Assembly (NCBI GenBank): GCA_963807645.1
Contig: CAWECO010000005.1
Coordinates: 97,216-161,215, forward strand
Direction: 5' to 3'
Origin: an uncultured Gemmatimonadales bacterium
GTDB lineage: Bacteria; Gemmatimonadota; Gemmatimonadetes; Palauibacterales; Palauibacteraceae
Length of the DNA stretch: 64,000 bases
Below, piece by piece: positions 2,542 through 52,640 of the stretch. The position numbers and the translations under genes are program-made. How positions within the stretch are numbered: the stretch's first letter is position 1; each line of letters starts with the position of its first letter. The notes below the pieces were generated by a model. The model saw nothing but the letters and a program-made list of their open reading frames with translations, did no database searches and was not told the DNA's origin.

Positions 2542-5084
2542 TCGAGGTACAGCGTCGTCGTCTCGTCGCTGAAGCCGGCTTCCAGGGAAATGATGTTCAT
2601 CGTGCCCAGAAGCCCCCACCACAGGCCGCCACCGAAGCCCCAGTGAGCCGAGCCGGGCGAATCCCCGTCGACCCACACGCGGCCCACGTCCGCAAAGCCG
2701 AGCAGGCCCCACATGGAGGGCACGAGCAATTGCCCATCCATCACGTGAAGACGAAACTCGGCCGATCCGTACACCGACGCGTCGCCGGCGAATCGGCCGG
2801 CGCGCCATCCGCGCAGCGTCTCCGGGCCACCGACGAAGGCCGCGTCGTACCACGGGTAATCACCCCATATCTTCTTCCCGCCGATACGGGCCGCCCCGTG
2901 GGTCGCGTCCTTGAGAAGCGGAATCTGCAGGTAGCCCCTTAACTCTCCCCCCAGCCACCCGTACGGCTCCACCAGGTCCATCCAGTCCGGGTAGTAACGC
3001 CCCTGGGCCGTCAACGCGGCCCCGGTGAGTCTGGGGATCTCCCCCGTCCAGTGAATCCGGATGTTACGGCGGGAATCCCAGTCGAAGCGCGCAAAAGCGC
3101 CAGTCTGCCAGGTGTCATCGACTCCATACAAACCGGGAAGCTGGTTGATGAAACTCTCGGGATCGTCATCGGTGCGTGAGTAGCTGATGACGGGCCCAAC
3201 CGCGAATCCGGTCGAATTCCCCGGAAACGAACCGATGGCGAGTTCCAGGCCCGAGGCGTTTCGGTGCACCTTGGCCGAGTTGCGGTCAACCTCAGGTGAG
3301 TCATTTCCGTACCCGTAGAAATTCAGCACGTCGAAGCTGCTCGAGTAGAGTTCACCCATCACGAAGGCGCGCGAGTTCTCGAATCGAAAGTCGCCGTCCA
3401 ATCGGATCTCGTACTTGAGGGCCGTCGAAATAGCCCCGAAAACGCCGACTTCCGAGGCGTACGGCTCCTTCCGGAATCCGTAGTCGAACCAGGTCTTGCC
3501 CGCGCCGAGCTTGAACCCGTAGTCGGAGGTCAATCCGATCGTGGCCCGGGGCAGGCTCCAGCGACCCCAGTCGCGATGCGGAGGATCCATCGGGTCTGGA
3601 ATCTCGTCCGAGTTCGGGTAATCACGAGTGTTCAAAGCCGCGGATCGCTGACCGGTGATGCGGAAATCGCCGTCCACGTCGTACACGCTCACGCCCCTCG
3701 TGTCGGTCTCGAAGTGCACGTGGTCGTCTCCCCGGCCTCCTATCAAGCGCACCTTGATCGGCAGTCGGGAGGCTCCCCGGATCGTCACTCTATCACCGCC
3801 GCCGCCCAGATAGACCCGTACCTCCTTCGTCTCGTCGCGTCGAAACGTACGCCGAAAGTACGGCTCTGCGCCCTGAGCGCCGACGACAACCTCGATCGCG
3901 CCGTTCGCGTCGCCCGTGATCCGCACCTCTTCCGCTTCGAAGGTGGCGTGTATGTCCACTTCGCGGGACATCAGCAGGTAGAACCGGTTCGCCGCATCAC
4001 CCAGGGACACCCGGCGGATTTCGAGCTTCTCGCCAATCCACTCCGCGTCGAGGTCGTAGTACTGCCTCGGAAGGCGACGAAGCGCTGCGTCCACGACGTC
4101 GTCGGTCAGCACGGAAGTCAGATAGGCGGCCGTCGAATCGAACGCCGACCGATTGAGGTCGGCCAGGAACCGGCGGTCCACGAAGCGGGCGTTCCAGTGC
4201 AGGCTCAGTGGATCGTAGGATGACCCGAAGCCGGTCAGCTGGGGCACGAAGACCTGTGCTGCGTGGGGAAGGACGCCGTCCAGCCTTGAGAAGGCCTGGT
4301 CGCGGTCGAGAGGAATCGGATACCACAGGCGAGAATCGTCGTGATCGTAGGCCGCCCAGCGCCACTGGCCCGGATGGCGGTCCCAATCGCCCACGTAGAA
4401 GTCCAGGAGCCGAGCCTTGAGGAACTCCTTCGAGTCCACCCGATCCGCGGCCGAATTCAGTAGTCGGTCGACCAGTGTCTGGGTTCCCACGACCTCGCGC
4501 GGAGGCCCCATCGACATCAGGTCCGAAAGGCCCTCGTCCGCTGCTTCCTCGATCATGCCAGGAACTCCGCGAAATTCCTCTCGAAATTCGCCCAGACCGG
4601 GCTCGTCGGCGAAGGTGACGAGCTTGGGAGCCGGGTGAGGAATCCCGGCGGCCGTGGCCAGCGGCGATACGATCATCTCGCCAAGCGGGTGCTGCGAGCT
4701 GATCTGGTCGCGCAGAACGTCCATGGCGACGGAGTTCCGGAGAACCGGTGGAAGCACCGCGGAGGGTTCCTTGTCCAGTGACCGGAAATAGTACTGCCGT
4801 CCGTCGACTCCCTGCAGGCGGAGGGTGCGGCTCTGCAGGCCTCCCGTCGTGCCGGCGGGGGTTACACCTCCCGTGAACTCGGCACAATCCAGCACCTCTG
4901 CCTGAATCGAAGTGGTCCACGCGTCGCGGTAGTGGTCCCCCCACCAGAAGCGCCACCAGCCACCGGCTTCGTACTGGGCGCCCGGGATCACTTCGACCGA
5001 ATCGGTGCCGGTGGTCGGAACCTGAGCGGACAGCACGACGGGGAACGACAGAGCAAGGAAGATCGTGCAGGCAAGGCGTTTCAT
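2523..5084 (-). CDS. Large outer-membrane protein, C-terminal Omp85/BamA-like beta-barrel (ends ...EWSFAF); ~500-aa N-terminal domain of unknown function
   Basis: Signal peptide MKRLACTIFLALSFPVVLSAQ begins at ATG 5084. C-terminal region VGGPETLRGWRAGRFAGDASVYGSAEFR resembles the surface-antigen D15 family; terminal aromatic Phe. The ORF is 853 aa with no frame breaks. Confidence 0.55.
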   Translation of the reverse strand: MKRLACTIFLALSFPVVLSAQVPTTGTDSVEVIPGAQYEAGGWWRFWWGDHYRDAWTTSIQAEVLDCAEFTGGVTPAGTTGGLQSRTLRLQGVDGRQYYFRSLDKEPSAVLPPVLRNSVAMDVLRDQISSQHPLGEMIVSPLATAAGIPHPAPKLVTFADEPGLGEFREEFRGVPGMIEEAADEGLSDLMSMGPPREVVGTQTLVDRLLNSAADRVDSKEFLKARLLDFYVGDWDRHPGQWRWAAYDHDDSRLWYPIPLDRDQAFSRLDGVLPHAAQVFVPQLTGFGSSYDPLSLHWNARFVDRRFLADLNRSAFDSTAAYLTSVLTDDVVDAALRRLPRQYYDLDAEWIGEKLEIRRVSLGDAANRFYLLMSREVDIHATFEAEEVRITGDANGAIEVVVGAQGAEPYFRRTFRRDETKEVRVYLGGGGDRVTIRGASRLPIKVRLIGGRGDDHVHFETDTRGVSVYDVDGDFRITGQRSAALNTRDYPNSDEIPDPMDPPHRDWGRWSLPRATIGLTSDYGFKLGAGKTWFDYGFRKEPYASEVGVFGAISTALKYEIRLDGDFRFENSRAFVMGELYSSSFDVLNFYGYGNDSPEVDRNSAKVHRNASGLELAIGSFPGNSTGFAVGPVISYSRTDDDPESFINQLPGLYGVDDTWQTGAFARFDWDSRRNIRIHWTGEIPRLTGAALTAQGRYYPDWMDLVEPYGWLGGELRGYLQIPLLKDATHGAARIGGKKIWGDYPWYDAAFVGGPETLRGWRAGRFAGDASVYGSAEFRLHVMDGQLLVPSMWGLLGFADVGRVWVDGDSPGSAHWGFGGGLWWGLLGTMNIISLEAGFSDETTTLYLEWSFAF

Positions 5085-5390
5085 CGGACAGCCGCCTCCA
5101 GTGGATCGACTCTCCGCGAAAACCACTGCAACGCCCGGGGGGGCGGGACGATCAGTAGCGGGCGCAGACGCCGGAACCGATCGAATGTGTGGGAATTCCA
5201 CTGTTAGAGTGCTGTTTTTGTTAAAGTTGCGCCAGTGCAGGGCAGCGCTGTTCCGTCTCCTCCGTCCGTAGAGATGAACGAGGATCACCTTTGAGTACCG
5301 GGTTGGAGTGATTAGAGTGGGAAGGTCTGTCCCGAACGGCTGTGGAAATACGCATCCTCGAGGGGACATCAACTTCTCTGGAGGTCTTAC

Positions 5391-7061
5391 ATGCGATACG
5401 GGATCGTATTTTCCCTGGCGCTCCTCGCCGTGAGCTGCGGCGGCGAGACCGCGGAGCGCGCCGGACAGACCGATGACGCGCCAGTCGCCGAAGCCAACCC
5501 CACGGACGCGGACGGCTCGAGTCTCGGCACGGTCGTCGTCGCCGGAACGTGCTCCGGCGCGGCGCAGGCGGACCTGGAGAGGGGCCTGGCCTTGCTGCAC
5601 AGCATGACCTACGAGGAGGCGGCCCGGGCATTCGATGCCGCGACGGAGGCGGACCCGAACTGTGCAATGGGCTACTGGGGACAGGCCATGACCTTCGTAC
5701 ACCCCCTGTGGTCCGACCCTCCATCCGAGCAGGCGTTTGAACGGGGACGCGAGCTATTGGTCTCCGCGCGGGAACATGCTGCCACGGGCCAGGAACTGGC
5801 TTACATCGAGGCCCTCGCGGCTTACTACGATGCGGGTCGGTCGGGGTCCGAGAAGCCGAACCTCGTGGCCTTTGAGGCGGGGTGGCGCGATTTCTACGAC
5901 GCCTACCCGGAGGACCCCGAGGGCGCCGCATTCTACGCGCTCGCCCAACTCGCCACCGTGGATCCGGCGGATAAGACCTACAGCAAGCAGCGGCAGGCAG
6001 GCGCTCTCGCCGAGCAGGTGCTCGCGAGTGTGCCGGATCATCCGGGGGCTCACCACTACATCATCCACGCCTACGACAATCCTGAACTGTCATCGGCAGC
6101 GGTGGACGTGGCCCGAAACTACGGCGGGGTGGCCCCGGAGGTCCCGCACGCCCTGCACATGCCCACCCACACGTTTACGCGCCTGGGACTGTGGCAGGAG
6201 TCGATTGAATGGAACCGGCGGTCGGCCGACGCCGCCCTGAAGCACCCGATCGGCGAGGCCAAGTCGCTGCACTACTTCCACGCCCTGGATTACCTGGCCT
6301 ACGCTTACCTGCAGGGCGCCGAAGATGGCCGAGCCGCCGCGGTCCTCGCCGAGCTGCAGGATGTCGAGCCACCCTATCAGCCTCACCTGGCCAGCGCGTA
6401 TACGTTCGCCGCGGTCCCGGCCCGGCTGACGCTCGAGAGGCACTTGTGGGACGCCGCCGCGGATCTCGAACCGCGCTCCCCTTCCGATTACCCATGGGAC
6501 ACGGCTGCCTCGTCCGAGGCGATCACGTACTTCGCCCGCGCACTGGGGGCTGCTCGCAGCGGCCGTTTCGAACAGGCTCGCTCGGATCTGGCGACCCTCT
6601 CCGGATTGCTGGCGAAGGTCGCGGCCGCCAGTCCATACTGGGGGACGCAAGTCGAGATACAGCGGCTTACGGCTCTGGCCTGGCTCCAGTACGAAGAAGG
6701 CGACGGGGAGAGCGGACTCGAGACCATGCAGAAGGCCGCTGACATGGAGGCGGGCACCGAAAAGCACCCGGTTACGCCCGGCGAAGTGCTACCCGCCCGT
6801 GAACTTCTGGCGGACATGTACATGGAGCTCGGCCAGTTCAAGGAGGCCCTGGCTGCCTACGAGGCGGCTATCAACCGCAGTCCCAACCGATTCAACAGCC
6901 TGTACGGAGCCGGGATGGCGGCAACGAAGACAGGCGAATTGACAAAGGCGGCGGAGTATTTCGACGCGTTGCTCGAGGTCACGAGTCATGCGGATACGAA
7001 CAGGCCACGTCTGGAAGAAGTACGCAGTATCGTCGACGCGCGCTCGCTCGAGAGCGCGTAG
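5391..7061 (+). CDS. TPR-repeat lipoprotein (hypothetical)
   Basis: Lipobox MRYGIVFSLALLAVSCGG. GGAGG lies 8 nt upstream of the ATG. TPR-like helical repeats occur in the C-terminal half (ELGQFKEALAAYEAAINRSPN...). Intact 556-aa ORF. Confidence 0.6.
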   Translation: MRYGIVFSLALLAVSCGGETAERAGQTDDAPVAEANPTDADGSSLGTVVVAGTCSGAAQADLERGLALLHSMTYEEAARAFDAATEADPNCAMGYWGQAMTFVHPLWSDPPSEQAFERGRELLVSAREHAATGQELAYIEALAAYYDAGRSGSEKPNLVAFEAGWRDFYDAYPEDPEGAAFYALAQLATVDPADKTYSKQRQAGALAEQVLASVPDHPGAHHYIIHAYDNPELSSAAVDVARNYGGVAPEVPHALHMPTHTFTRLGLWQESIEWNRRSADAALKHPIGEAKSLHYFHALDYLAYAYLQGAEDGRAAAVLAELQDVEPPYQPHLASAYTFAAVPARLTLERHLWDAAADLEPRSPSDYPWDTAASSEAITYFARALGAARSGRFEQARSDLATLSGLLAKVAAASPYWGTQVEIQRLTALAWLQYEEGDGESGLETMQKAADMEAGTEKHPVTPGEVLPARELLADMYMELGQFKEALAAYEAAINRSPNRFNSLYGAGMAATKTGELTKAAEYFDALLEVTSHADTNRPRLEEVRSIVDARSLESA

Positions 7062-7101
7062 TCACGACAGGCTGGAACCGTATCAGGCGCCCTGATGCAA
7101 C

Positions 7102-7126
7102 GAAGCCCCTCCGCGGAGGGGCTTCG
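7102..7126. terminator. Bidirectional intrinsic terminator hairpin between convergent genes
   Basis: GAAGCCCCTCC-gcg-GGAGGGGCTTC, an 11-bp perfect stem. A second small IR ATCAGGcgcCCTGAT sits at 7082-7096. Confidence 0.5.
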
Positions 7127-7147
7127 TGCATCTACTTCACCGTCATC

Positions 7148-8886
7148 CTACAACTTCCCTGCCCGCTTCAACGCCCTCCGCTTTTCCTCGTTCTCCCGCC
7201 ACGGCTTCCGCTCGAAGTAGCTTCGCGTCTCCGCCAGCACCTGCGGCGACAGCAGCACGAGGGCGATGAGGTTCGGCACGATCACTACGGCCAGGAAGAG
7301 ATCGCCCAGGTTCCAGATCACCGCGAGTGGCAGGACCGCGCCCACGAAGTGCATCGTCACGAACGCCATCTTGTACGGAAGCACGGCCGCCGAACCGAAC
7401 AGGTAGTTGGCGCATCGATCCCCGTAGTAGCTCCAGGAGATTGCCGTGGAGAGGGCGAACAAGAGAACCGCCAGCACCACGATCGTCCCGCCCCAGTCGC
7501 CGAGCGGCGAGAGACCGATCCGGAATCCCGCCTGGGTGAGCGGCGCCCCGCTCTCGTAGGCCAGCCCGTACAGAGTCGTGTGTCTGTTCCCGTCCGTGGC
7601 CTCGGCGATGGCGTCCACCGGCCGGATCGTTCCAGAGAACCGGACGGTCATGTCCGCGATCGATGAACAGCTCTTCGACGTGCACGTCGTGCCACGCGAG
7701 TAGCGGAGCGTCCAGGGTCTGCGCGTGCCGTCCGTCCGCGATCACGAGCTCCGCGGGGGCCTCGATACCCGCCCGCACGCCCTCGGCGTCCACGCTCACC
7801 CACGTCAGGTCGCCTCCATCCAGGACGATCGGCGTCGGCAGTCGCTCGTTCCAAACGCCAGTGGTCAGAATCACGAGCCCGGTCATGGTGCAGATGACGA
7901 GCGTGTCGATGAACGGCTCGAGGAGCGCCACCACGCCCTCGGACACCGGCTCGTCGGTCTTGGCCGCGGCGTGCGCGATGGGGGCGGAGCCCTGCCCTGC
8001 CTCGTTGGAGAACAGGCCGCGCCGCACGCCCCACATCATGGTCACGAGGAACGCGCCGACACCCGTGCCGGCGACCCCGGCGGTCGGATTGAAGGCCTCG
8101 CGGAAGATCAGCTCGAACGCGGGAATCACGGCCCCGATATTGAGCCCGATGATCGAGCAGAGCGCCGAACACGTAGAGGGCCGCCATGGCCGGTGCCAGG
8201 ATCGCCGTGACCTTGCCGATCCGCGTGATCCCACCAAGGATCACAGCCGCGACGACGGTCGACGTGATCACGCCGGTGGCCCAGGCCGGGATGCCGAACG
8301 TGGTTCGCATCGTGTCGGCGACCGTGTTCGCCTGGATGGCGTTTCCGGTGAGAAAGGCGGTGAGCCCGAGGAGGACGGCAAAGAGAATGGCCATCCACTT
8401 CCAATTCGGGCCGAGACCGCGCTCGATGTAGTACATGGGACCGCCGGAGACCGTCCCTTCCCAGGCGTGTCCGTGCGTTTCCTCGATCACACGGTACTTC
8501 TGCGCCAGCGTGACCTCGGTGTACTTGGTCGCCATTCCGAGCGCCGCCGTGACCCACATCCAGAACAGCGCGCCAGGACCGCCCCAGTGGATGGCGATCG
8601 CGACGCCGGCGATGTTGCCGATCCCCACCGTCGCCGACAGCGCCGTCGTGAGAGCCTGGAAGTGCGAGACGTCTCCCGGCTCATCGGGGTCGTCGTATGC
8701 CCCGGTCGTGACCTTGAATCCGTGCCCGAGGCGCCGGAGCTGGATGAAGCCGAGACGAAGGGTCAGGAAGACGCCCGTGCCGAGGAGGAGGATCACCATG
8801 TAGGGGATCGTCTCTCCCCCTACGGTGAGTCCCATCTCCACGATGTACCGATTGCCGACCTCGGACAGCCACTGGAAGAATTCCAT
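7148..8886 (-). CDS. Na+/alanine-glycine symporter (AGCS family), split into three frames by two 1-nt indels (~8166 and ~7650-7700)
   Basis: N-part: IGNIAGVAIAIHWGGPGALFWMW. Middle part: GVRRGLFSNEAGQGSAPIAHAAAKTDEPVSEGVVALLEPFIDT. C-part: LFALSTAISWSYYGDRCANYLFG. First junction reads ...YVFGALL|IIGLNIGAV. Confidence 0.75.
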
Positions 8887-9118
8887 GCACGCCCCGTCAG
8901 GTTTCGTTGATCTTCACGGCGCCTCTGCCGAATCGAGATCGGAGAAGATAGGGAGGGTGCATGGGTTCGTGCGAATCGGAGGGTGCCTGACCGTTGGCGA
9001 TGCTCGCCTCTTTCCTCGATGAGGCGTGCTCGACTTGCTTCGCGGAGCGCAAACGGTAGATCTTCAGTAATGGCACCTCGCTCCCGGGCTGCCCCCTCCC
9101 AGGCGAGCCATCCCCTTT

Positions 9119-9991
9119 GTGCGGACAGGCTACGTGTCAACTCGGGCAGCATGGTCGCGCGCCAGCATCCGGAGTCTGGCCCCCCTCCTGTTGTGGTCAT
9201 TCGTCCCCGGGACGCTCCTGGCGCAGTCCGGCTGGATCTTCGGGGGCGATGCCGTGGTCCGAAACACCTACCTGTGGCGGGGCGTGACACGTAGCAGCGC
9301 CTGGGTTCTGCAACCCGACCTCTTCCTCGCTGGATCGCAGGACCGCTCGAACATCACGGGCGGGTGGTGGAGCACGATCGATCTTGGGTCGGTCGATCCG
9401 GGTGACCCGACGAGCGCCGGACTGGGGCAGACATGGTTCGGCCAGAACGACCTGTGGCTCGAAGTTGCGGTGCGTTCGGGGACAGTCGACTTCACCGTAG
9501 GGGTCACCCGGTACCAGTTTGCGGATCGGTCCTTCGGCCAATCCGCTGACGCGGTGAACACCACCGAACTCTACGCCACGGCTGGTCTCTCTGCGGGTCC
9601 GCTCGTGCCCCGGATAGCTCTGTGGGTCGACGTGAGCCGGGTGCGAGGCGCGTACTTCGAGACGAGTCTGGACCTGAGGGTACCGGTTCTCCCTTCCTAC
9701 GAACCCGTCATCGCGGCATACCTGAGCGCCCTCGCCGGCTGGAGCGCCGGACAGGAGATCAACCGCCAGAGCCCGGACGAAGCGGCATATTTCGGCGACG
9801 CTGGCCTGACGCATCTCGATTTCGGCCTCGACGTAGCTGTCGGCCGCAATCAGCGGTACGTCACTCTCGAACTGCACGTCCTCGCCGCGCAGGACGGAGG
9901 AGCCCGAGCGGAGCCCGGCACTTCCAGAAACGCTTCCTGGTGGCTGGGGCTGGGATTCAGTGATTCCGTCGTGCTGGGAGCCCTGTGGTGA
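9119..9991 (+). CDS. Secreted/outer-membrane beta-barrel-like protein (hypothetical); first gene of the ceramidase-kinase operon
   Basis: Signal peptide ...IRSLAPLLLWSFVPGTLLAQS. Sequence has alternating hydrophobic periodicity and ends ...VVLGALW. Its stop overlaps the next gene start (9985). The antisense ORF 9197..10060 is Arg-rich noise. Confidence 0.45.
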   Translation: MRTGYVSTRAAWSRASIRSLAPLLLWSFVPGTLLAQSGWIFGGDAVVRNTYLWRGVTRSSAWVLQPDLFLAGSQDRSNITGGWWSTIDLGSVDPGDPTSAGLGQTWFGQNDLWLEVAVRSGTVDFTVGVTRYQFADRSFGQSADAVNTTELYATAGLSAGPLVPRIALWVDVSRVRGAYFETSLDLRVPVLPSYEPVIAAYLSALAGWSAGQEINRQSPDEAAYFGDAGLTHLDFGLDVAVGRNQRYVTLELHVLAAQDGGARAEPGTSRNASWWLGLGFSDSVVLGALW

Positions 9992-12129
9992 CGGCCAGAG
10001 CCGGACGGTGCGGCGCTTCGTGGATCCCTGCCTTCCTGGCGATCGCCGGTCCGGCAACACTGTGCAGTTGTGCCTCCACGGACATCACGACCCCGGCCGC
10101 GAGATCTGCGGAACCCACGGCATCAGAGCTTCCAGGCCTCAAGGTCGGATTCGGTCGCGCTGACATCACACCTCCGCCTGGGCTCGGGCTCAGTGACTAT
10201 GGCCCAGCAGGCGGGGTAGCTCGCGGGCATCGGCAGCGGCTCTACGCCCGGGCGATGATCCTGGAGGATGGGCGCGGTGAGAGGATCGCCTGGGTCACCG
10301 TCGACCTCGCCCAGCCGTCGTTTCTGTTGCACCGGGAAGCAGCCGAGCGGGTCGTCGCCGAAACCGGGATCGGAGCTGACAGACTGGTCCTCACAGCCAC
10401 CCATACCCATGCAGGCCCCGGTCATTTCTTCTCCAGTCGCAGCTACAACCAATTCGCACCGGGCATCCCGGGATTCGACCCCGCCGTCGTCGAGTTCCTG
10501 GCGGACCGTGTGGCGATGGCGATTCGAGAGGCATCCCAGGGGCTGACGCGGGCTGCGGCCGGGTGGGTACAGGCTCAGGTATGGGGGCTTACCAGGAATC
10601 GGAGTCTCGAGGCGCATGCGAGGAACCCGGCCGTAGAGGGCCGGCCGACACCGCCGCCTGGTCTGACCATGGCGCAAGGGGCCGTCGATCCGACATGGAC
10701 CATGCTTCGGGTGGACACGATTTCTTCGCAGGGAGACACGGTACCGGCCGGCGCGCTGAGCATCTTCGCGTACCATCCGACAGGCAATCCTCCCGCCAAT
10801 GACCTTTACGACTCTGACATCTCGGGTCTCGTGGAACGCGGGTTGGAAAGGCACATGGACGCGCTGGCCCAAGCCGGCACTCGATTCGTCCCGGCGACCG
10901 TTCACCTGGTGGCGAACGGCGCGGAGGGAGACGTAGTTCTGGAAGGCAGCCTCGATCACGACTGTGAGCGGCCTGCACAGAGAAGAGGTGTTCGGCCCGG
11001 AGGCCCTCGTACTCCCAAGCCTCTCGATGAATGGACATCTCTGGCTGATGACTCCGGATCGGAGTGCGTCGGCAAGGCCCGCGCGTTCATCAACACGACC
11101 GGAGACGCCCTCGCGGCCCAAGCGATCCGAATCTTCAGTGACGCCGGGCGTGACCTTCGTTCCGACCTGCAACTCAGGAGGTCCTTCAGGACTGTTCGCC
11201 TCACCGGTCCCGAGGCCTCGACCGACTTGTGCCCCGAGCCTCAGGTAGGCGCCGGAGCGTCAGCCGGGTCGGAAGGCAGCCAGAGCAACCTGAAGGACTG
11301 GAAGGTCCTCGGTCTGTTCCCACTGCACGCGGAAGAAGGTGCGGTCGACACGACGAGCGGTGGCTGCCAGGCTCCGAAACGCAGGCTGCCGTGGATCCTG
11401 CGCATCGGGATGGGAAACCTCCACTTCCCTGCCGAGGCGCAGCTCATGGTCGTGCAGATCGGAGACCTGGCGGCCGCGGCAGTCCCCCTCGAGGTGACGA
11501 CCGAAGTGGGGTTCCGAATCCGGGATGCCATGCTACGTACTTCATTGGAAGACGCTCTGGGCATCCGAGCGGTAGCTGTGGTTGGACTGGCCAACGGGTA
11601 CATGCAATACGTAGCTACGCGGGAAGAGTACCAGGCCCAGCACTACGAGGGCGGATCCACTCTCTATGGACCCGGATTCGCCGAGTTCCTTCAGGCCGAA
11701 ATCGTAGAACTGACGGCAAGATTGAGCGACGGAGGATATGCGCGGGTAGAGCCCATTTCGGGTAACCCCGGTTCGCAACGCAAGATTTTCCCGCGTACCA
11801 GAGACCCTCGCCCGGAGCGCCTGATCGTCACACGGACGAGTTGCGGGCGTGATACGGTAACGGTGCGTTGGCTCGACGCACCCCCGGGCTCTCTGCTCCC
11901 TTCCGACGGTCCGATGCTCGAACTGCGCCGATCGCGGACGGGGGAGAGGACGACCGTCACCTGGGACGACGATCGTTTCGTAGAGGTGAGGGGAATCGAA
12001 TCGGTGGACGGTCGGGGGTATCTGTGGGAAGCCCGCTGGACTCCACCTGGAGGCACCCGGGGCGACTACTCGGTCACGTTTCTTCGCTGGCCACGCGACG
12101 CGAGCGACAGGGGGTTCCGATGTCCGTGA
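9985..12129 (+). CDS. Neutral/alkaline ceramidase family lipoprotein
   Basis: Lipobox ...ATLCSCAS. N-terminal block GFGRADITPPPGLGLSDYGPAGGVARGHRQRLYARAMILEDG...VLTATHTHAGPGHFF matches the neutral ceramidase N-domain. At 714 aa the size fits. No frame breaks. Confidence 0.65.
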   Translation: MVTARAGRCGASWIPAFLAIAGPATLCSCASTDITTPAARSAEPTASELPGLKVGFGRADITPPPGLGLSDYGPAGGVARGHRQRLYARAMILEDGRGERIAWVTVDLAQPSFLLHREAAERVVAETGIGADRLVLTATHTHAGPGHFFSSRSYNQFAPGIPGFDPAVVEFLADRVAMAIREASQGLTRAAAGWVQAQVWGLTRNRSLEAHARNPAVEGRPTPPPGLTMAQGAVDPTWTMLRVDTISSQGDTVPAGALSIFAYHPTGNPPANDLYDSDISGLVERGLERHMDALAQAGTRFVPATVHLVANGAEGDVVLEGSLDHDCERPAQRRGVRPGGPRTPKPLDEWTSLADDSGSECVGKARAFINTTGDALAAQAIRIFSDAGRDLRSDLQLRRSFRTVRLTGPEASTDLCPEPQVGAGASAGSEGSQSNLKDWKVLGLFPLHAEEGAVDTTSGGCQAPKRRLPWILRIGMGNLHFPAEAQLMVVQIGDLAAAAVPLEVTTEVGFRIRDAMLRTSLEDALGIRAVAVVGLANGYMQYVATREEYQAQHYEGGSTLYGPGFAEFLQAEIVELTARLSDGGYARVEPISGNPGSQRKIFPRTRDPRPERLIVTRTSCGRDTVTVRWLDAPPGSLLPSDGPMLELRRSRTGERTTVTWDDDRFVEVRGIESVDGRGYLWEARWTPPGGTRGDYSVTFLRWPRDASDRGFRCP

Positions 12130-13763
12130 CGGACGAGGTCTTCATGCACCCCTTGAGCGATCCAGTGTCGGGCACGTCAGGGTCTTTACCGCTGACCGCC
12201 GATCGCTCATTTGGCGAAGAGGAGAGGGAGCTTCTCACGGGTCGGTGCCGTCTCGTTTTCGGCCTCGGCGTGGCGATCAGCCTGACCTTGATCCTTCTCT
12301 CCCGTGGCTTCATCAACAGGCCGCAACTCGCCGCCAACGCGCTGGAAAGCCTCGAAACCTGGTTCGACGCGGGACACCTCCTGTCCTTCGCCCTCGCGTT
12401 CGGCTCTCTGTTCATTGGAACGCCGAGCGTACGACGCCTCCAGGTAACCGCGTTCGCCGTACTCGCGGTCAACATTGTTCTGGTCGTATTCAGCATGGGC
12501 GTGATCAGACCTGACTATCCACCCGAACTCGCGATCGCGCTGCTGCTCTTCATCCCCGCCGCGGTGATTCCGTGGCGAGTCGGCTACCAGGTGAGCCTGG
12601 GCACGATAGGGGTCGCGACACCGGCCCTCGCTCAGGTGTTCAGTTACGCGTTCATGCCGCAGGCGAGGGAATACTGGGCCGGGATAGGAGGACAGGCGGC
12701 CTTTCAGAACCACCTCGTCGTCATGGGCGTAGGTCTTCTCATCCTGGCAGCCACTTCGGTCCTGGTCACACGGACGCTGTACAGCCTCCGCCGCAAGGCT
12801 CACAGGGCGAGGCAGCTCGGCAACTACACTATCGAACGGAAGATGGGAAGAGGCGGCATGGGAGAGGTGTTCGTGGCCCGCCACGCCCGAATGTGCCGAC
12901 CGAGTGCGGTGAAGGTCCTGCGAGTCTCGGGAAGCCTGGACCTGGACGCCCTCGCCCGCTTCGAGCGGGAGGTACAGCTCTCCTCCAGTCTCACGCATCC
13001 CAACACGATCACCATCTTCGACTTCGGCCGCGCGGGTCAGAACACGTTCTACTACGCAATGGAATACCTGGAAGGGCTAGACCTCCAGCGCCTCGTGAAG
13101 CGCTTCGGGCCGCTCGGCGCCGAACGAACGATTTTTCTGCTGACTCAGGTGTGTGGCTCCCTGGCGGAAGCCCACGGCCGTCAGATAGTGCATCGAGACA
13201 TGAAACCCGCGAACATCTTCGTGACGGAGCGGGGCGGACTGTTCGACTACGTGAAGGTGCTGGATTTCGGTCTCGCCAAGCACGTGGACTCGGGCGATGG
13301 GGAAGGTGTGACCAAGGCAGGGCTTATCCTCGGAACGCCGGAGTACATGGCCCCGGAAGCTATACGAGACGAGGGGCGGGTGGACACTCGCGCCGACCTT
13401 TACGGTTTGGGGGCGGTCGCCTATTTCCTGCTGACCGGTCAGCCGCCGTTTCAGTGCCGGACCCAGCTGCAAACCCTGGTTGACCAGGTGCGGAAACCTC
13501 CCGTACCACCCTCCGAGGTCACGGAAATCGAGATCCCGGTCGAACTCGAGTCGATCGTCCTGAAGTGCCTGGAGAAGTGGCCCGAAGAGCGCTATCAGAA
13601 GGTGGAAGAGATAGACGCGGCCCTGCGATCCGTACCCCTGGAGGAAACCTGGAATCTAGACCAGGCGAGAGAGTGGTGGACCCTGCATTCCGAGGTCGCT
13701 CGCCCCGTCCTGTATGAATCGGCACCCGGTAAGGGAGTTCCCGCCGCACTCCCCGGTCGATAA
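12120..13763 (+). CDS. Polytopic membrane Hanks-type Ser/Thr protein kinase
   Basis: ATG 12120 overlaps the ceramidase stop by 10 nt. N-terminal ~270 aa contains 6-7 predicted TM helices. Kinase motifs: GRGGMGEVFVARH, AVK, HRDMKPANIF, LDFGLAK, GTPEYMAPE. Confidence 0.8.
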   Translation: MSVTDEVFMHPLSDPVSGTSGSLPLTADRSFGEEERELLTGRCRLVFGLGVAISLTLILLSRGFINRPQLAANALESLETWFDAGHLLSFALAFGSLFIGTPSVRRLQVTAFAVLAVNIVLVVFSMGVIRPDYPPELAIALLLFIPAAVIPWRVGYQVSLGTIGVATPALAQVFSYAFMPQAREYWAGIGGQAAFQNHLVVMGVGLLILAATSVLVTRTLYSLRRKAHRARQLGNYTIERKMGRGGMGEVFVARHARMCRPSAVKVLRVSGSLDLDALARFEREVQLSSSLTHPNTITIFDFGRAGQNTFYYAMEYLEGLDLQRLVKRFGPLGAERTIFLLTQVCGSLAEAHGRQIVHRDMKPANIFVTERGGLFDYVKVLDFGLAKHVDSGDGEGVTKAGLILGTPEYMAPEAIRDEGRVDTRADLYGLGAVAYFLLTGQPPFQCRTQLQTLVDQVRKPPVPPSEVTEIEIPVELESIVLKCLEKWPEERYQKVEEIDAALRSVPLEETWNLDQAREWWTLHSEVARPVLYESAPGKGVPAALPGR

Positions 13764-13776
13764 GCACTCCAGGCGC

Positions 13777-13911
13777 TCAATCGTGCAGCATTCGCTCCGG
13801 CGGATCGTCCAGGTCGTCGAACTGACCGTCTCGAGCCGCCTTCACGAACAGCGCGGCGAAGATGCCCCCCAGGATCAGGGCGATCGGGAGAAGAAAGAAG
13901 ATCGAGTTCAC
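13777..13911 (-). CDS. ccoS: cbb3 oxidase maturation protein CcoS
   Basis: 44 aa: VNSIFFLLPIALILGGIFAALFVKAARDGQFDDLDDPPERMLHD, the CcoS signature (GQFDDLD). GTG start overlaps the ccoI stop (GTGA). Confidence 0.7.
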   Translation of the reverse strand: MNSIFFLLPIALILGGIFAALFVKAARDGQFDDLDDPPERMLHD

Positions 13912-16304
13912 GTGCTTCCACCGTTCATCGAGGCCTCTATGCGGGACGAGCCCCAGATCACCATGGCGCTCGACGCCGGCATGAGAATGGCGGCCACCAG
14001 CGGATTGATCAAACCCACGGCCGCCGCACTCACCGCCACGATGTTGTAGGCGATGGATCGCCGCTGGTTCCACCGGATGGCGCGCTCACAGGCGAAGGCC
14101 GCCTGAAAGCCCGAGACGAGCGGCTGCAGCGACCAGGTCGAGATCACGCCATCCGCCACCAGCACGCTGCTCGCGGCGCCGGTTCCCATCGCGACGCCGA
14201 CGTCGGCGGCCGCGAGGGCCGGCCCGTCGTTCAGGCCATCCCCGGCGAACAGGACCCGGCAGCCGGATTCCTGGCGAGCCCGCACCCAGGAGGCCTTACC
14301 CGCTGGATCGATTTCCGCCCAGAAACTGCTGACGCCCGCCGCGGCGGCGATCCGGCCGGCGACCTCCTTGTGGTCCCCGGTCAATAGCACGACCTCGAGC
14401 CCCCGGGCCTCGAGCTGCGCCACGGCCTCCGAGGAGTCCGCTCGGACGACGTCTCCGAGACGGATGCGCCCCGCTTCACCGACTTCGTTTCGAAGGACGA
14501 CCTCGCCCGGCCCGCCTGATACGAGCTCCCAAGGCGCGCCGTCCACGCGACCGGCGACCCCCGTTCCGGGAGCCTCGTGGACCGCTTCGGCTTTCGGCAG
14601 CGGGATACCACGGTCGACGGCCTCGGCGATGATGGCCCGGGCGATCGGGTGAATGCTGAAGCGCTCGAGTCCGGCCGCGATCCTCAGCGTGGTGTCGTCC
14701 GCGCTCACCACCGTGAGATCGCCGTGCGTGAGGGTGCCCGTCTTATCGAGGCCGACAGTATCGACGTCCACCAGGTCGAGCAGACCGTCGGCCGAGCGGA
14801 ACAACAGGCCCCGGCGGGCGGCCGCGCCCAGGCCGGCGGCAGCGGCGAGGGGCCGGGACAGGGCCAGGGCACACGGACAGGCGACTACCAGGACCGCGAC
14901 GCAGGCCCGAAGGGCCGTTCCGCTGTCACCGGCGAGGAGCCACCCGGTCGCGGTCAGGGTCGCGGCGATCAGGGTCGCGGCCGTGAACCAGGGGGCGATG
15001 CGGTCCGCGGTCGAAAGGCGGACGGGACGATCCGCAGCCGCCCTGAGGTCCGCAGCCATTCGCTGGATGGTGGTGTCCTCTCCAGCGCGGTCCACCCGAA
15101 CGGTGAGAGCCCCGTCCACCAGCACGGCGCCCGAGACCACTTCGTCGCCAGCCGACGATTGCCACCGGCTCCGCTTCGCCCGTGATCAGGGCCAGGCGTA
15201 CCGTCGCCTGGCCATCGACCACGACGCCGTCGGCCGCGAACTCCTCGCCGGCCCCTACATCGATCAGGTCGCCGAGGACGAGGTCGCCGGCCGGGACGAC
15301 CTCCACCGAGTCTCGCAACCCGCCTGCGGGCCGTGGCCGGAAGCGCGGCCGCCAGTGAGACTGCGGCCTCCGCTGCCCGGCGGCGCCCACGACCCTCGAG
15401 CATGCGGCCTGCGAGCAGCAGGGCGACGAGCATGGCGAGCGAATCGAAGTAGGTGTCCGTCCCCACGATCGTCGATACGAGGCCGTGCACGTACAGAACG
15501 GCCACCGCCAGCGCGATCGGGAGGTCCATGTGCAGGACGCGGTTCTTCAGACCCTGGATGGCTCCCGAGAAGAACGGCTCGGCGCACCACAGGGCCACGG
15601 GAGTCACGAGCAGCAGCGAGGCCCATCGGAACAGCGCCGCGTAGCGCTCTTCCATGGCGGACACCCAGCCCAGGTAGAGGGCCGCCGACATCATCATGAT
15701 GTTCATGGCGGCGAACGTGGCGACACCGAGCCGGATCACGAGGCCCTGGTCCGGCCGGCTCTCTTCGCCAAGGAGACGGGGCCGGTAGCCAAGTGCGGCC
15801 ACCTTGCCGGCCAGCGTGCCGAGATCCACGGCCTCGGGATCCCAGCGAAGGCTGGCCCGTCCGGTGGCATAGCTGACGGTCGCTTCCTGCGACACCGGGC
15901 GTGGCCTGCAGGATGTGCTCGGTCACCCACACACAGGAGGCGCAGCGAAGGCCATCGAGGACGAGGCGGACCTCGGAGGTACCGTCGTCGCAGAGCGTGA
16001 CGGGCACGGCGTCCCAGCCCGCTCGCAGGGGGCCCGGACGCGGAGCGTACTCCGAGCGGTCCTCGTAGTAGCGCTCGAGGCCGGCGTCCCGGATGATGGC
16101 CGCCGCCATCTCACACCCGTGGCAGCACCACGTGTCCTCGGAACCTTCGACGGGAGTGCCGCAGTGGGGACAGCGTGAGGTGATCAGCGCGATTCCGTCT
16201 GGTAGGACGGCACGACTTCGTCCCTGTCGGATACGGCTACGTAGATGAACACCGCGTTCATGATGATCACGATCAGCAGACCGACGATGATCATGATCGG
16301 CCAC
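13908..16304 (-). CDS. ccoI: Cu-translocating P1B-type ATPase CcoI/FixI; coding sequence broken across 4 frames (indels ~15895, ~15320, ~15125); 5' end uncertain
   Basis: Segments recovered: N-terminal CPHCGTPV...CCHGCE (FixI motif); TM region; A-domain LALITGEAEPVA (TGE); VGLDKTGTLT (DKTGT); GDGLNDGPALAAADVGVAMG. There is no in-frame ATG/GTG/TTG between the upstream small ORF stop and CPHCG. Confidence 0.75.
16184..16294 (-). CDS. 36-aa single-TM peptide ORF at the position normally held by ccoH/fixH (speculative)
   Basis: MIIVGLLIVIIMNAVFIYVAVSDRDEVVPSYQTESR lies 25 nt after the ccoG stop. It overlaps the out-of-frame 5' region of ccoI. No clear RBS; it could instead be a frameshifted N-terminus of CcoI. 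Confidence 0.25.
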   Translation of the reverse strand: MIIVGLLIVIIMNAVFIYVAVSDRDEVVPSYQTESR

Positions 16305-16319
16305 AGCAGCCGGTCGAAC

Positions 16320-17663
16320 TTACGGACCGGTTGAGCCAATCTCCGCTCCCGTCTTGAACGTGGGATGCAGCACGATCTCTCCATCGCCGTCGGTCACGCT
16401 CACCTCGAAGGCCGTGGTCCGGTCGAGATCCGAGGAGGGAGGAACGCGCACGATCAGCGGCACCGTCCGGGATTCCGCTGTGTTCAACTCGACCGGCTGA
16501 GAGATCACCTCGGCGTCGCCGAGGCCGGATACGACAATGTCGTACTCCACCGGCAGCGGCGACGGATCCTTGTTCGTGATCTTTACGAGGAACGTGTTCC
16601 GGGTGGATCCGTCCGTGTCCATCGTATATAGCGAACCCGGGGCCCGGTTCACGGTCGCCTCGAATGGGACGCGGCGGGCGACGAGGACGCCGATAGCCAC
16701 GAGAATCGATACGAGCAGCGTCCCATACACGAACGTTCGCGGTCGCCACCTGCGAGGCTTGCGGCCCTGCTCTTCGGCGACCGATCCGTAGGCTACCAGC
16801 GTCGGGTGCCCCAGCTGGTCCATGACGCTCGTGCACGCGTCGATACAGCGCGCGCACTGGATGCACTCGAGCTGGAACCCGTCGCGGATGTCTATGCCCT
16901 GCGGGCACACGGCCACGCACTTGTTGCAGTCTATGCACCGCCCGTCCTGGGCGGCCTTCTTGCCGGCTTCACGCGGCTCGCCCCGCTCCGTGCTGTACGT
17001 GATGATCAGGGACTCGTCGTCCGCGAGGGCGCTCTGGAAGCGTGCGTACGGACAGACGTAGTTGCAGAACTGCTCCCGGAACCACGTGAAGTCCCAGAAC
17101 CAGAACAGGGCGATGATCGCCGTCAGCGAGTACTCGACCGGTCCCGCCCGACCCGTCCACAGCTCCCGCGCCCCGGCGAAGATGCTCATCATGGCCATGG
17201 CCAGAAACACCGAAACGGCCAGGAACACCGACCACTTGGCGGCTTTTCGCCATGCCCGGTCGAACGTCCAGCCCCTGGCGTCCCGCCGCTTCCGCGTCAG
17301 CCGGTCGCCCTCGATCCACAGCTCGACGGGCCGGATCCACGATTCGAGGAACACAGTCTGCGGACACGCGTAGCCGCACCAGATGCGCCCGAAAATGGCC
17401 GTGAAAAAGAACAGCGAGAACGCCGCGAACCAGAGGAGGAGCAGCAGTATGATCGAGTCAGACGGCGTGAAGATATAGCCGAAGTGGTAGAACCGGCGCG
17501 CCGGGAGGTCGATGAGGATCGCGGGATAGCCGTTGATCATGATCCACGGCGCCGCCAGCAGCAGCAGGTGCAGGCCGAGGAACGTCCAGCGCCGGATCGT
17601 CATGAACCGGCCCTTGATGGACTGCGGATACACCCAGTCCCGTGTCTGTGAGAAACCGAGCAC
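16320..17663 (-). CDS. ccoG: cbb3 oxidase accessory 4Fe-4S ferredoxin-type protein CcoG
   Basis: Motifs CGYACPQTVF; CIDCNKCVAVCPQGIDIRDG; CIQCARCIDAC; multiple TM helices. Intact 447-aa ORF. Confidence 0.8.
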   Translation of the reverse strand: MLGFSQTRDWVYPQSIKGRFMTIRRWTFLGLHLLLLAAPWIMINGYPAILIDLPARRFYHFGYIFTPSDSIILLLLLWFAAFSLFFFTAIFGRIWCGYACPQTVFLESWIRPVELWIEGDRLTRKRRDARGWTFDRAWRKAAKWSVFLAVSVFLAMAMMSIFAGARELWTGRAGPVEYSLTAIIALFWFWDFTWFREQFCNYVCPYARFQSALADDESLIITYSTERGEPREAGKKAAQDGRCIDCNKCVAVCPQGIDIRDGFQLECIQCARCIDACTSVMDQLGHPTLVAYGSVAEEQGRKPRRWRPRTFVYGTLLVSILVAIGVLVARRVPFEATVNRAPGSLYTMDTDGSTRNTFLVKITNKDPSPLPVEYDIVVSGLGDAEVISQPVELNTAESRTVPLIVRVPPSSDLDRTTAFEVSVTDGDGEIVLHPTFKTGAEIGSTGP

Positions 17664-17714
17664 GTCTATTCCTTGCGGCGGCGAGCGACTCGACCGGGCT
17701 TCAGACCGCGCCGG

Positions 17715-18287
17715 TCAGCCGTCCTCGCCCGCCTCTTCCAAGTTCTCTGCCTCGCCGGCTTCTTCAGAATCGTCCGGCTCGCCGACGTACTCCGCGTTCT
17801 TTTCCAGCACATAGGCCGCGACCTGGTTGATCTTCTCCGGTCCGAGAATCGGACCCCAGGTCAGCATGCCCTTCTCGGGCACTCCTTCGGTGATGACGCG
17901 AATCACGGACTCCGAGTCACCGCCGTGAATCCACTCATCGTCATTCAGGGCGGTTCCGATTCCACCCTCAAGCGCCGCGCCGTGACACATGGTGCAGTTC
18001 TGCGCGTAGACGGCCTCACCGGCGGCCACCGCTTCGGGCGTGATCGCGAACGAGACGGCCGCGGCGGCCTCGACCGGCCACCTGACCTCGGCGGCCTGCA
18101 TCTCGCGGGCCAGGTGGCCCTCCTGCGAACGGTTCCCGATGAAGTGGTAGTGCACGGCGTAGGCGACGGCCCAGATCACCGTGAACCACAGGAGTCCCAG
18201 CCACCAGTCGGGAAGCGGGTTGTCATATTCCTCGATGCCGTCGCTCTCGTCGGCATGGCCGAGCACCTGGTTGGTGTCCTTGCTCAC
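17715..18287 (-). CDS. ccoP: cbb3 oxidase subunit III CcoP, short mono-haem form with acidic C-terminal tail
   Basis: GTG 18287 overlaps the ccoQ stop (GTGA). N-terminal DGIEEYDNPLPDWWL then a TM helix. One CTMCHG haem site. C-terminus EPDDSEEAGEAENLEEAGEDG. The longer ORF-track version (from 18509) overlaps ccoQ and is rejected. Confidence 0.6.
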   Translation of the reverse strand: MSKDTNQVLGHADESDGIEEYDNPLPDWWLGLLWFTVIWAVAYAVHYHFIGNRSQEGHLAREMQAAEVRWPVEAAAAVSFAITPEAVAAGEAVYAQNCTMCHGAALEGGIGTALNDDEWIHGGDSESVIRVITEGVPEKGMLTWGPILGPEKINQVAAYVLEKNAEYVGEPDDSEEAGEAENLEEAGEDG

Positions 18288-18463
18288 CGGTCGACTCCCT
18301 CCTCGAAGGGCAGCAGGGCCGCATCCTCGAACTTCTGCCTGTTTCGGGGCGTGTAGGCGTACCACACCCAGGCGAAGAACGCAGCCATGAACAGAACGGT
18401 CAGGACGGTAGCCAGCCCGCCCATTCCTATGGATTCCGAAGCCTGCTGGGTCAGCGGATTCAT
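18284..18463 (-). CDS. ccoQ: cbb3 oxidase small subunit CcoQ-like membrane peptide
   Basis: 59 aa: MNPLTQQASESIGMGGLATVLTVLFMAAFFAWVWYAYTPRNRQKFEDAALLPFEEGVDR. Has a single TM helix and a CcoQ-like AYxPxNxxxFEEAAxLPF tail. Its ATG overlaps the ccoO stop (ATGA). Confidence 0.55.
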   Translation of the reverse strand: MNPLTQQASESIGMGGLATVLTVLFMAAFFAWVWYAYTPRNRQKFEDAALLPFEEGVDR

Positions 18464-19192
18464 CAGTACTCCACTCCCTGCTTCTCGAGCGCCGCGCGAC
18501 CGTCCACACCGAGCCGCTGCAGGTAAGCGATCATCGCGACGATGGCCCGGTCGGGCTCTGATCCGATTCCGGCCTCGCTCAAGCGTCCGACAATAGCACC
18601 GCCCTGCTCGGCAAGGCTCTCCTCCACCCCGGCTATATCCGCTTCGGAGTAGGGAGTTCCCGTCTTCCTCAGGGCCACCATGGAGGCCCTCACGTCGGCC
18701 GCGTCGATGCGATTCCGTGAGTAGCCAGGAGTAGGACGGCATCACGCTGCCCGGCGTCGTGCTCCGCGGGTCGCGCATGTGCTCGTAGTGCCAGGCATCC
18801 GGGTACTTGCCGCCCACACGGTGCAGGTCGGGACCGATCCGCCGGGACCCGAGCTGGAAGGGCCGGTCGTACTGGTACTCCCAGGCCCGCGACCACGGAC
18901 CGTAGCGCAGGATCTCGGCGCGCATCGGCCGCACCCACTGCGAGTGGCACACGTAGCACCCCTCTGACACGTAGATGTCACGGCCCGCCACTTCGAGCGC
19001 CGTGTACGGCGTAACATCGGGCGAGATCTCGGTGCCGGCCGGCGTGAACATGGGGACGATCTCCACGATCCCGCCGATCAGAATCGCGATCGTCGCCCAT
19101 ACGGCGAAGTTCACGATGTTCGCCTCGAAGAACCGGCGGTGGAACTGCCCGTATTTCTTCTCGGAACCGTGGGTCTTCATTTCGTCAGCCAT
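18463..19192 (-). CDS. ccoO: cbb3 oxidase mono-haem subunit II CcoO; one 1-nt indel near 18700
   Basis: N-part: TM helix + CYVCHSQ + FQLGSRRIGPDLHRVGGKY + VMPSYSWLL. C-part sits in another frame (18463..18693): ALRKTGTPYSEADIAG...AIVAMIAYLQRLG. Confidence 0.8.
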
Positions 19193-32733: not shown

Positions 32734-36522
<3,789 letters not shown>

Positions 36523-52532: not shown

Positions 52533-52607
<75 letters not shown>

Positions 52608-52640
52608 CTCGGTCCCCGATCGCCGTCTTCACGGCTGCCC

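Follow-up and report, generated by a model that had tools for sequence, protein, structure and literature searches.

In a 64,000-nucleotide (nt) stretch of an uncultured Gemmatimonadales genome (contig CAWECO010000005.1 of assembly GCA_963807645.1, positions 97,216 to 161,215; hereafter, the window), we analyzed three overlapping genes at positions 9119 to 13763 that encode a predicted outer-membrane (OM) barrel, a lipoprotein of the neutral ceramidase family, and a membrane-bound Ser/Thr kinase, and that an earlier note on this DNA had proposed to be a ceramide-responsive signaling unit. Comparison with related loci indicates that the robust unit is the barrel together with the lipoprotein amidase, a two-gene envelope cassette found across the Gemmatimonadota, and that the kinase is best viewed as an accessory of this cassette in certain lineages. 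What is new is that a divergent lipoprotein of the neutral ceramidase family shares a phylum-wide cassette with a TorF-like barrel, to which a rare Hanks-type kinase with six transmembrane (TM) helices has been added here. Ceramide-responsive signaling by the trio is plausible from its sequences, and our literature search returned no description of ceramidases or sphingolipids in Gemmatimonadota, in keeping with the remark in the earlier note that such a unit was undescribed in this lineage.

The cassette was delineated from the ceramidase side, in 80 loci from GTDB species representatives in which the three proteins were located by tblastn; a gene caller based on GC content at third codon positions (GC3) chose antisense open reading frames (ORFs) in several loci, and our conclusions are based on the tblastn coordinates. 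The barrel gene lies directly upstream of the ceramidase gene, on the same strand, in 59 of 61 informative loci labeled as Gemmatimonadota and in 0 of 15 loci from outside the phylum (Myxococcota, Planctomycetota, Acidobacteriota, Actinomycetota, and Rhodothermales). Clustering the ORFs of 72 ceramidase loci yielded the ceramidase, the barrel, and the kinase as recurring families, every other family being present in at most 6 loci, and neither an AraC-type regulator nor sphBCD-like genes recurred near the ceramidase in these 72 loci. A six-TM kinase adjoins the barrel-ceramidase pair in approximately 18 of 51 loci, 9 on the same strand and 9 convergent (in one convergent case, the kinase domain alone was detected). 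Conservation of the trio, which the earlier note had named as a check on its proposal, is thus phylum-wide for the pair, but the kinase accompanies it in only about one-third of loci, and half of those are convergent. All close homologs of the ceramidase come from metagenome-assembled genomes (MAGs) of Gemmatimonadota, and synteny of the flanks with those of the window is restricted to relatives with at least 79% ceramidase identity. One locus with the full trio at 65 to 88% identity to the window (L067, CAXMRU010000051.1) is binned as Akkermansiaceae and is probably misbinned.

A few other neighbors were considered as cassette partners and set aside. In one lineage, a penicillin-amidase-family gene (an acylase-type Ntn hydrolase) lies directly upstream of the barrel gene (L009, positions 2800 to 5043; L101 and L102, positions 10689 to 12932), and in two loci (L026 and L035) a metallophosphoesterase gene occupies that position; neither recurs in other lineages. 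The former case places another N-acyl amidase beside the cassette. Neighboring genes for Rho, an S46 peptidase, a DUF5916 protein, a GGDEF protein, and a phage-sheath protein are unrelated.

Within the window, the barrel gene (9119 to 9991), the ceramidase-family gene (9985 to 12129), and the kinase gene (12120 to 13763) all lie on the + strand, and the ORF list shows that they overlap at both junctions. At the first, the stop codon of the barrel gene (TGA, 9989 to 9991) and the GTG start of the ceramidase gene at 9985 produce a 7-nt overlap; the alternative start, GTG 9988, would give a classic 4-nt GTGA overlap. At the second, the kinase ATG at 12120 precedes the ceramidase stop (12127 to 12129), giving the 10-nt overlap that the earlier note had described, and a Shine-Dalgarno-like run, AGGGGG (12109 to 12114, + strand), sits within the 3′ end of the ceramidase gene, 5 nt upstream of the kinase ATG. 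The sequence of this region, CAGGGGGTTCCGATG, is identical in six close relatives and reads CAGGAGGTTCCGATG in L067.

Both overlaps recur in relatives of the window. The 10-nt ceramidase-kinase overlap is exact in 11 of 12 same-strand cases (the window and 10 of its 11 relatives) and is kept in relatives down to 53% ceramidase identity, most same-strand relatives with this overlap also having a G-rich ribosome-binding run ahead of the kinase start; the exception at this junction is locus L012, where a 61-nt gap replaces the overlap. The barrel and ceramidase genes overlap by 1 to 7 nt in 10 of the 12 cases (the window and 9 of the 11 relatives). Because their length is conserved in distant relatives, the overlaps are not due to chance, and an independent assembly, a Logan contig from run ERR12040029, has the same layout with gene calls of 285, 713, and 547 amino acids (aa). 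Both neighbors of the trio are encoded on the opposite strand, a sodium:alanine-type symporter gene on the upstream side and a ccoS/ccoI-like cluster on the downstream side, and the trio is therefore a self-contained unit. In or beside the operon, a consensus scan returned neither a sigma-70-like promoter nor a convincing terminator, and an Rfam scan returned no match; the intergenic region between the trio and the divergent symporter gene (8887 to 9118, + strand) is presumed to hold the promoter by its position only. Judged from the conserved start/stop overlaps, the three genes form a translationally coupled operon, as had been proposed.

The second gene encodes a protein of 714 aa when translated from GTG 9985 (GTG 9988 being the alternative). 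Its match to the Pfam family Ceramidase_alk (PF04734; E = 8.8e-55, 186.7 bits against a cutoff of 32.1) covers profile positions 2 to 501 of 509 and places the catalytic domain at approximately 10141 to 11673 (+ strand). The only solved relatives found by a sequence search of the PDB are the ceramidase of Pseudomonas aeruginosa (PaCD; 2ZWS) and human ASAH2 (4WGK). In HMMER alignments to these two, and with residue roles as assigned to neutral ceramidase in PMC6952831, the zinc ligands H140, H264, E503, and Y542 correspond to H97, H204, E411, and Y448 of PaCD and to H194, H303, E540, and Y579 of the human enzyme, and the catalytic residues H142, R206, and Y554, which are invariant, correspond to H99, R160, and Y460 of PaCD and to H196, R257, and Y591 of the human enzyme. 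The zinc ligands are invariant or at least 90% conserved in an alignment of 22 homologs, and across more than 80 loci the sole exception is a single Ala at the E503 position.

The protein carries a predicted lipidation site at Cys29, in the lipobox L-C-S-C (codon at 10069 to 10071, + strand), followed by a Pro-rich tether. This Cys is aligned in 19 to 20 of the 22 homologs, after a hydrophobic stretch and a small residue (L/V/A-x-G/A/S-C), and six further Cys residues conserved in the same alignment could form disulfides, consistent with an extracytoplasmic, oxidizing location. The public NCBI/ENA call for this gene (P0002; 624 aa, 100% identical) starts at an internal Met, and this N-terminal truncation drops the signal peptide, the lipobox, and the first conserved catalytic block; the homologs and the Logan call support a length of 713 to 714 aa. 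The PF04734 match and the conserved lipobox confirm the earlier identification of a ceramidase-family lipoprotein. From these sequence features, we regard the product as a zinc amidase that is lipid-anchored outside the cytoplasm and that belongs, as a distant member, to the neutral ceramidase family; it is probably active, and we infer its substrate.

The two characterized relatives delimit how far the likeness goes. With PaCD (also called CerN), the window protein shares PF04734, the aligned zinc ligands and catalytic His, Arg, and Tyr, and an extracytoplasmic location, but PaCD is secreted and soluble whereas the window protein is a tethered lipoprotein; moreover, only two blocks align by sequence, the Ser of the amidase motif is replaced by Val, and the C-terminal domain is unrecognizable. 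With ASAH2, it shares equivalents of H194, H196, R257, H303, E540, Y579, and Y591 and an amidase-motif-like block (GDV..C) followed by a conserved Cys; it differs in having Val in place of Ser354, in leaving the hidden Markov model (HMM) of the Ig-like C-terminal domain unmatched, and in its lipid anchor, ASAH2 having a type II signal anchor. The genetic partners are also different. In P. aeruginosa, expression of the ceramidase is controlled by the sphingosine sensor SphR (PMC5150637 and PMC3900636). That system serves by analogy as a conceptual precedent for a ceramidase tied to a sensor of its product, although its parts are not those of the window: SphR is an AraC-type regulator, whereas the ceramidase-family gene of the window is accompanied by genes for an OM barrel and a membrane-bound Hanks kinase, and no sphBCD-like genes are recurrent near the ceramidase.

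The first gene encodes a protein of 290 aa (285 aa if translation starts at GTG 9134) with a signal peptide at approximately residues 1 to 35. An AlphaFold2 (AF2) model built from a 16-sequence alignment (predicted local distance difference test [pLDDT] score of 72; predicted TM-score [pTM] of 0.73) contains 12 to 13 long antiparallel strands and was used in place of the single-sequence model (pLDDT of 35); together with the signal peptide, it substantiates the OM barrel of the earlier note. A Foldseek search of the PDB returned OM barrels only, led by the COG4313 channel 4RL8 (TM-score of 0.55 to 0.59) and including OmpG, PcoB, a KdgM-like porin, Tsx, LpxR, FapF, and autotransporter domains, and a PDB sequence search with the barrel profile found no solved relative. 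The window barrel falls below the cutoff of Pfam Gcw_chp (PF09694; E = 0.029, 14.8 bits against 24). Its homolog P0142 (31% identical) carries a precomputed PF09694 assignment and 2 of 16 members of the barrel family match the profile (best E = 4.2e-6), so membership of the Gcw_chp/TorF family is only transitive. The barrel resembles Gcw_chp/TorF porins (PF09694 and TIGR02001) in its comparable size, its signal peptide, and an early W/Y-R-G motif, but differs from them in scoring under the Pfam cutoff. Its likeness to channels of the 4RL8/COG4313 type lies in the best TM-score and in the gene logic of a small barrel encoded beside an enzyme for a hydrophobic substrate; at 8 to 13% identity there is no sequence homology, and the likeness is one of generic barrel fold only. 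We therefore describe the predicted product as a small OM beta-barrel and a divergent putative porin of the Gcw_chp/TorF type, a family on which the literature is essentially empty, with no known function or structure in the resources searched. That the barrel is itself a lipid hydrolase of the LpxR, PagL, or OMPLA type was considered, LpxR being among the fold matches, and rejected: the protein has no HxS-type motif, and the matches are generic.

The third gene encodes an intact Hanks-type Ser/Thr kinase. The catalytic domain (12825 to 13598, + strand, in a gene that ends at 13763) matches Pkinase (PF00069; E = 3.5e-45, 154.9 bits against a cutoff of 31.7), and the motifs GRGGMG, VKV (Lys), RFEREV (with the alphaC Glu), HRDMKPAN, DFG, and GTPEYMAPE can be read directly and are invariant in 18 relatives. 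The N-terminal membrane domain (residues 1 to 233; 12120 to 12818, + strand) has six hydrophobic segments by hydropathy, both in the window kinase and in the family average; the polytopic architecture given in the earlier note, TM helices ahead of the kinase domain, is therefore right, but the helices number six rather than about seven. With loops of only about 23, 5, and 19 aa on the periplasmic side, the kinase has no sizeable periplasmic domain. Basic residues are concentrated in loops 2, 4, and 6, and by the positive-inside rule the N terminus and the kinase domain are therefore predicted to be cytoplasmic.

The membrane domain has no match in Pfam or the PDB. An exhaustive search of 1.84 billion representatives matched 34 clusters, whose full-length members are approximately 480 to 550 aa with the membrane domain always N-terminal, and a word-index search returned only 2 proteins. 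Against the NCBIfam PknB/Stk1 model (NF033483), the protein scores 264 bits (cutoff of 450), the kinase domain alone being matched. It shares all of the canonical catalytic motifs with PknB/Stk1 kinases, but these have an N-terminal kinase domain, a single TM helix, and C-terminal extracellular PASTA or other domains, whereas in the window kinase six TM helices precede the kinase domain, the reverse order. We view it as an intact polytopic Hanks kinase of a rare, small family in which the membrane part comes first and the kinase last. A sensor domain that lies wholly in the membrane, as its sequence predicts, would be suited to detecting a lipid product or a perturbation of the membrane.

Seen from the kinase side, in a sample of 80 metagenome loci retrieved through kinase motifs, the kinase gene often adjoins unrelated envelope genes. 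In a neighbor-joining tree of 52 six-TM kinases, four groups are resolved, each with its own gene context: kinases with a same-strand ceramidase, with a divergent TPR/CsgG-like protein, with a downstream TLC/MFS transporter, and with a convergent ceramidase. The two ceramidase-linked groups are non-sister clades of opposite orientation. The transporter (about 775 aa; PF03219, E ~1e-13) lies downstream of the kinase on the same strand in L085, L087, L090, L092, L096 to L100, L103, L110, L133, and L136. The TPR/CsgG-like partner, of about 610 aa with an N-terminal TM helix, a CsgG/TolB_N-like domain, and TPR repeats, is divergent from the kinase and is paired with it in L088, L089, L091, L093 to L095, L104, L131, and L135. 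Locus L012 (JBDHHR010000042.1, positions 5105 to 9835) has the trio, with discordant histories: its kinase is of clade A, the same-strand type, and is 64 to 68% identical to that of the window, and its ceramidase is 43% identical and on a distant branch.

The working model that we favor gives the cassette a role in the envelope, where it would handle a hydrophobic N-acyl lipid. The barrel, of 12 to 14 strands and Gcw_chp/TorF type, would be a substrate-specific passage for such a lipid (ceramide or a ceramide-like amide), which would come from outside or from the outer leaflet and move through the barrel to the tethered periplasmic amidase, and the amidase would cleave it, releasing a long-chain amine and a fatty acid. 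Among the relatives to which the window belongs, the kinase gene has joined the operon via the 10-nt overlap; its six-helix domain would respond to a product or substrate of the cassette that partitions into the membrane, or to a membrane disturbance that the cassette causes, and the kinase would relay the signal by phosphorylating cytoplasmic targets. Small barrels are encoded beside enzymes for hydrophobic substrates in several known cases (AlkL, TodX, FadL, and COG4313), and by analogy with these we favor passage of a substrate as the function of the barrel. The cooperation of barrel and enzyme, physical or functional, the identity of the substrate, the direction of lipid flow, and sensing by the kinase are what we infer, and the data fit both uptake of an external lipid and turnover of the cell's own OM lipid. 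To the model as a whole, kinase sensing included, we give a probability of roughly 0.45.

Several observations weigh against this model, and three other explanations concern the enzyme and the barrel. Sequence identity to the solved ceramidases is low, with alignment limited to two blocks; the score against the NCBIfam neutral-ceramidase equivalog (NF041649) is 114.3 bits, far below its cutoff of 1200; and neither the middle region, scanned alone, nor residues 560 to 714 (the last 150 to 155 or so), even at E values of up to 10 and with Ceramidase_alk_C included, match any Pfam family. The amidase motif of neutral ceramidases is NxGDVSPNxxGPxC, in which Ser354 of the human enzyme supports the catalytic Arg (PMC6952831). 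The version in the present family is NGxEGDVSPxWPxxxRC, and most Gemmatimonadota members keep GDVSP; the window protein instead reads NGAEGDVVLEGSLDHDC (GDVVLEG), with Val318 (codon at 10936 to 10938, + strand) at the Ser position, and so lacks the Ser that marks membership. Across the family this position is mostly S but also A, G, T, V, I, or M, and in the close clade of the window it is V, I, or M. The catalytic residues, on which the earlier note had staked the ceramidase assignment, thus give a divided answer, the zinc site and the catalytic His, Arg, and Tyr being intact but not the motif Ser. These features would suit an enzyme whose substrate in practice is a different hydrophobic amide, for example an N-acyl amino acid, a lipopeptide, an aminolipid, or an acyl-homoserine lactone, and so would the penicillin-amidase-type acylase gene directly upstream of the barrel in one lineage; we consider such a substrate somewhat unlikely, in that the PF04734 match spans nearly the whole profile, all seven zinc-binding and catalytic residues are conserved, and all characterized PF04734 members are, to our knowledge, ceramidases. 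A further point against the model is that genes for sphingolipid synthesis or catabolism were not seen near the cassette in any locus. The pair might instead remodel or recycle the cell's own OM lipid, an endogenous sphingolipid or another N-acylated lipid, with the barrel giving the amidase access to the outer leaflet, as MlaA has with OmpC/F, and the kinase reporting the lipid state of the envelope. The near-constant linkage in Gemmatimonadota (59 of 61 loci) would fit such a housekeeping role, as would the membrane tether of an enzyme that is not secreted, the occurrence of the cassette alone, without recurrent catabolic, transport, or regulator neighbors, and the report of Spt-like genes in MAGs of 38 bacterial phyla (PMC11334938). 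On the other side, the main text of that report does not name the phylum, and the literature searched gave no evidence of sphingolipid synthesis in Gemmatimonadota. Furthermore, the known OM lipid-remodeling enzymes PagP, PagL, LpxR, and PldA are themselves barrels, and a barrel gene beside a periplasmic hydrolase is more typical of uptake; we consider remodeling of the cell's own lipid unlikely. Finally, the fold matches of the barrel are generic (TM-score of at most 0.59) and do not establish specificity as a channel, which leaves room for a barrel that anchors the lipoprotein or displays it at the surface, possibly together with a nearby Omp85-family protein, the enzyme then acting on extracellular lipid. 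Tight coupling of the two genes would fit production in fixed proportion, twelve-stranded translocator barrels (FapF, intimin, NalP, and BrkA) are among the fold matches, and the cassette is immediately preceded by an Omp85-family gene in four Longimicrobiales loci, the corresponding gene of the window lying some 3.7 kb upstream. However, a folded enzyme of 680 aa with probable disulfides cannot traverse a barrel of 12 to 14 strands, the fold matches are generic, and the Omp85-like gene is missing from the closest relatives, L001 and L002; we consider such an anchoring or display role very improbable.

On the kinase side, the points against the favored model concern how loosely the kinase and the cassette are associated. 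No six-TM kinase lies within 6 kb in approximately 33 barrel-ceramidase loci, about two-thirds of the total, and a convergent kinase cannot be cotranscribed with the pair. Of the kinase-seeded loci in which a membrane domain is present and both flanks are long enough, about 11 lack the ceramidase pair and 5 (4 unique) carry it, and equally similar kinase relatives adjoin the TLC/MFS transporter or the TPR/CsgG-like protein instead. The kinase may accordingly have no specific link to the ceramidase and be a general sensor of the membrane or envelope state, its adjacency being inherited synteny and the gene overlap a product of genome compaction. Every kinase subclade has its own fixed neighbor; in the ceramidase tree, the same-strand loci form a single clade and so do the convergent loci, as vertical inheritance of gene order predicts; and the kinase is absent from most cassettes. 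Against simple inheritance, the flanks beyond the trio vary among the loci of a group, two kinase clades that are not sisters both show the adjacency, and both the length of the overlap and the ribosome-binding run are conserved down to 53% ceramidase identity. Moreover, because L012 pairs a clade-A kinase with a phylogenetically distant ceramidase, it argues for repeated selection of the adjacency, which has been kept through turnover of the flanks and was probably established more than once. Comparison of the loci shows the adjacency to be dispensable from either side, and its repeated occurrence gives moderate support to a functional tie between kinase and cassette; inherited synteny stays a serious rival, and one to which we give a substantial chance, because relatives of the kinase have other contexts and many cassettes lack a kinase.

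The favored model has a stronger form, which we consider quite improbable: an undescribed envelope machine in which a TorF-like barrel and a tethered ceramidase turn over a ceramide-like OM lipid and, in some lineages, the six-helix kinase directly detects, within the membrane, the long-chain base or fatty acid that is released. If the kinase did sense the released lipid, gating by a sphingolipid metabolite would be a first for a bacterial Ser/Thr kinase, and turnover of a ceramide-like OM lipid would imply an endogenous sphingolipid biology in Gemmatimonadota; if the kinase link were mere synteny, a useful but ordinary family annotation would be left. Knowledge of sphingolipids in bacteria is growing fast, but we know of almost nothing on the degradation or sensing of ceramide in diderm bacteria outside Pseudomonas. 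The phylum-wide cassette of barrel and lipoprotein ceramidase offers a testable entry into the lipid handling of the largely uncultured Gemmatimonadota and a first functional lead for the uncharacterized Gcw_chp/TorF barrel family, and the kinase is a candidate membrane-embedded lipid-sensing Hanks kinase of unusual, reversed architecture.

The genes on either side of the operon are broken in the window. The symporter gene (7151 to 8904, - strand) is split over three frames, with breaks at about 8154 and 7650; its ortholog in L001 is one intact ORF of 587 aa, and the window copy is either a pseudogene or the result of an assembly indel error. The gene for a CcoI-like heavy-metal P-type ATPase (13917 to 16217, - strand) is in four pieces in three frames, with breaks at about 15870, 15314, and 15153, and is intact in L002 (768 aa). 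No frameshift interrupts the intervening 4.6-kb operon. Farther away, several short ORFs at 33821 to 35385 (- strand) resemble pieces of one ThiC-like gene, which suggests that frameshifts are widespread in the window, as in an error-prone assembly. The ATPase gene belongs to a group of genes at 13777 to 18509 (- strand), read by eye, that we take to be a cbb3-oxidase maturation and subunit cluster encoding a CcoS-like peptide, the CcoI-like ATPase, a CcoG-like 4Fe-4S protein, and a dihaem CcoP-like protein.

The Omp85-superfamily gene of the window (2526 to 5372, - strand) encodes a large OM protein (NF047779; E = 5e-18 to 4e-25 across loci) whose N-terminal approximately 600 aa have no assignment, and a PDB sequence search with this protein returned no match. 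Relatives occur in L036 (330 to 3071), L049 (2325 to 4871), L057, L043, L038, L133 (2769 to 5312), and L122, and in L133 the gene lies directly upstream of a six-TM kinase gene. The sole RNA gene detected in the window is a tRNA-Ile (GAT) at 52534 to 52608 (- strand).

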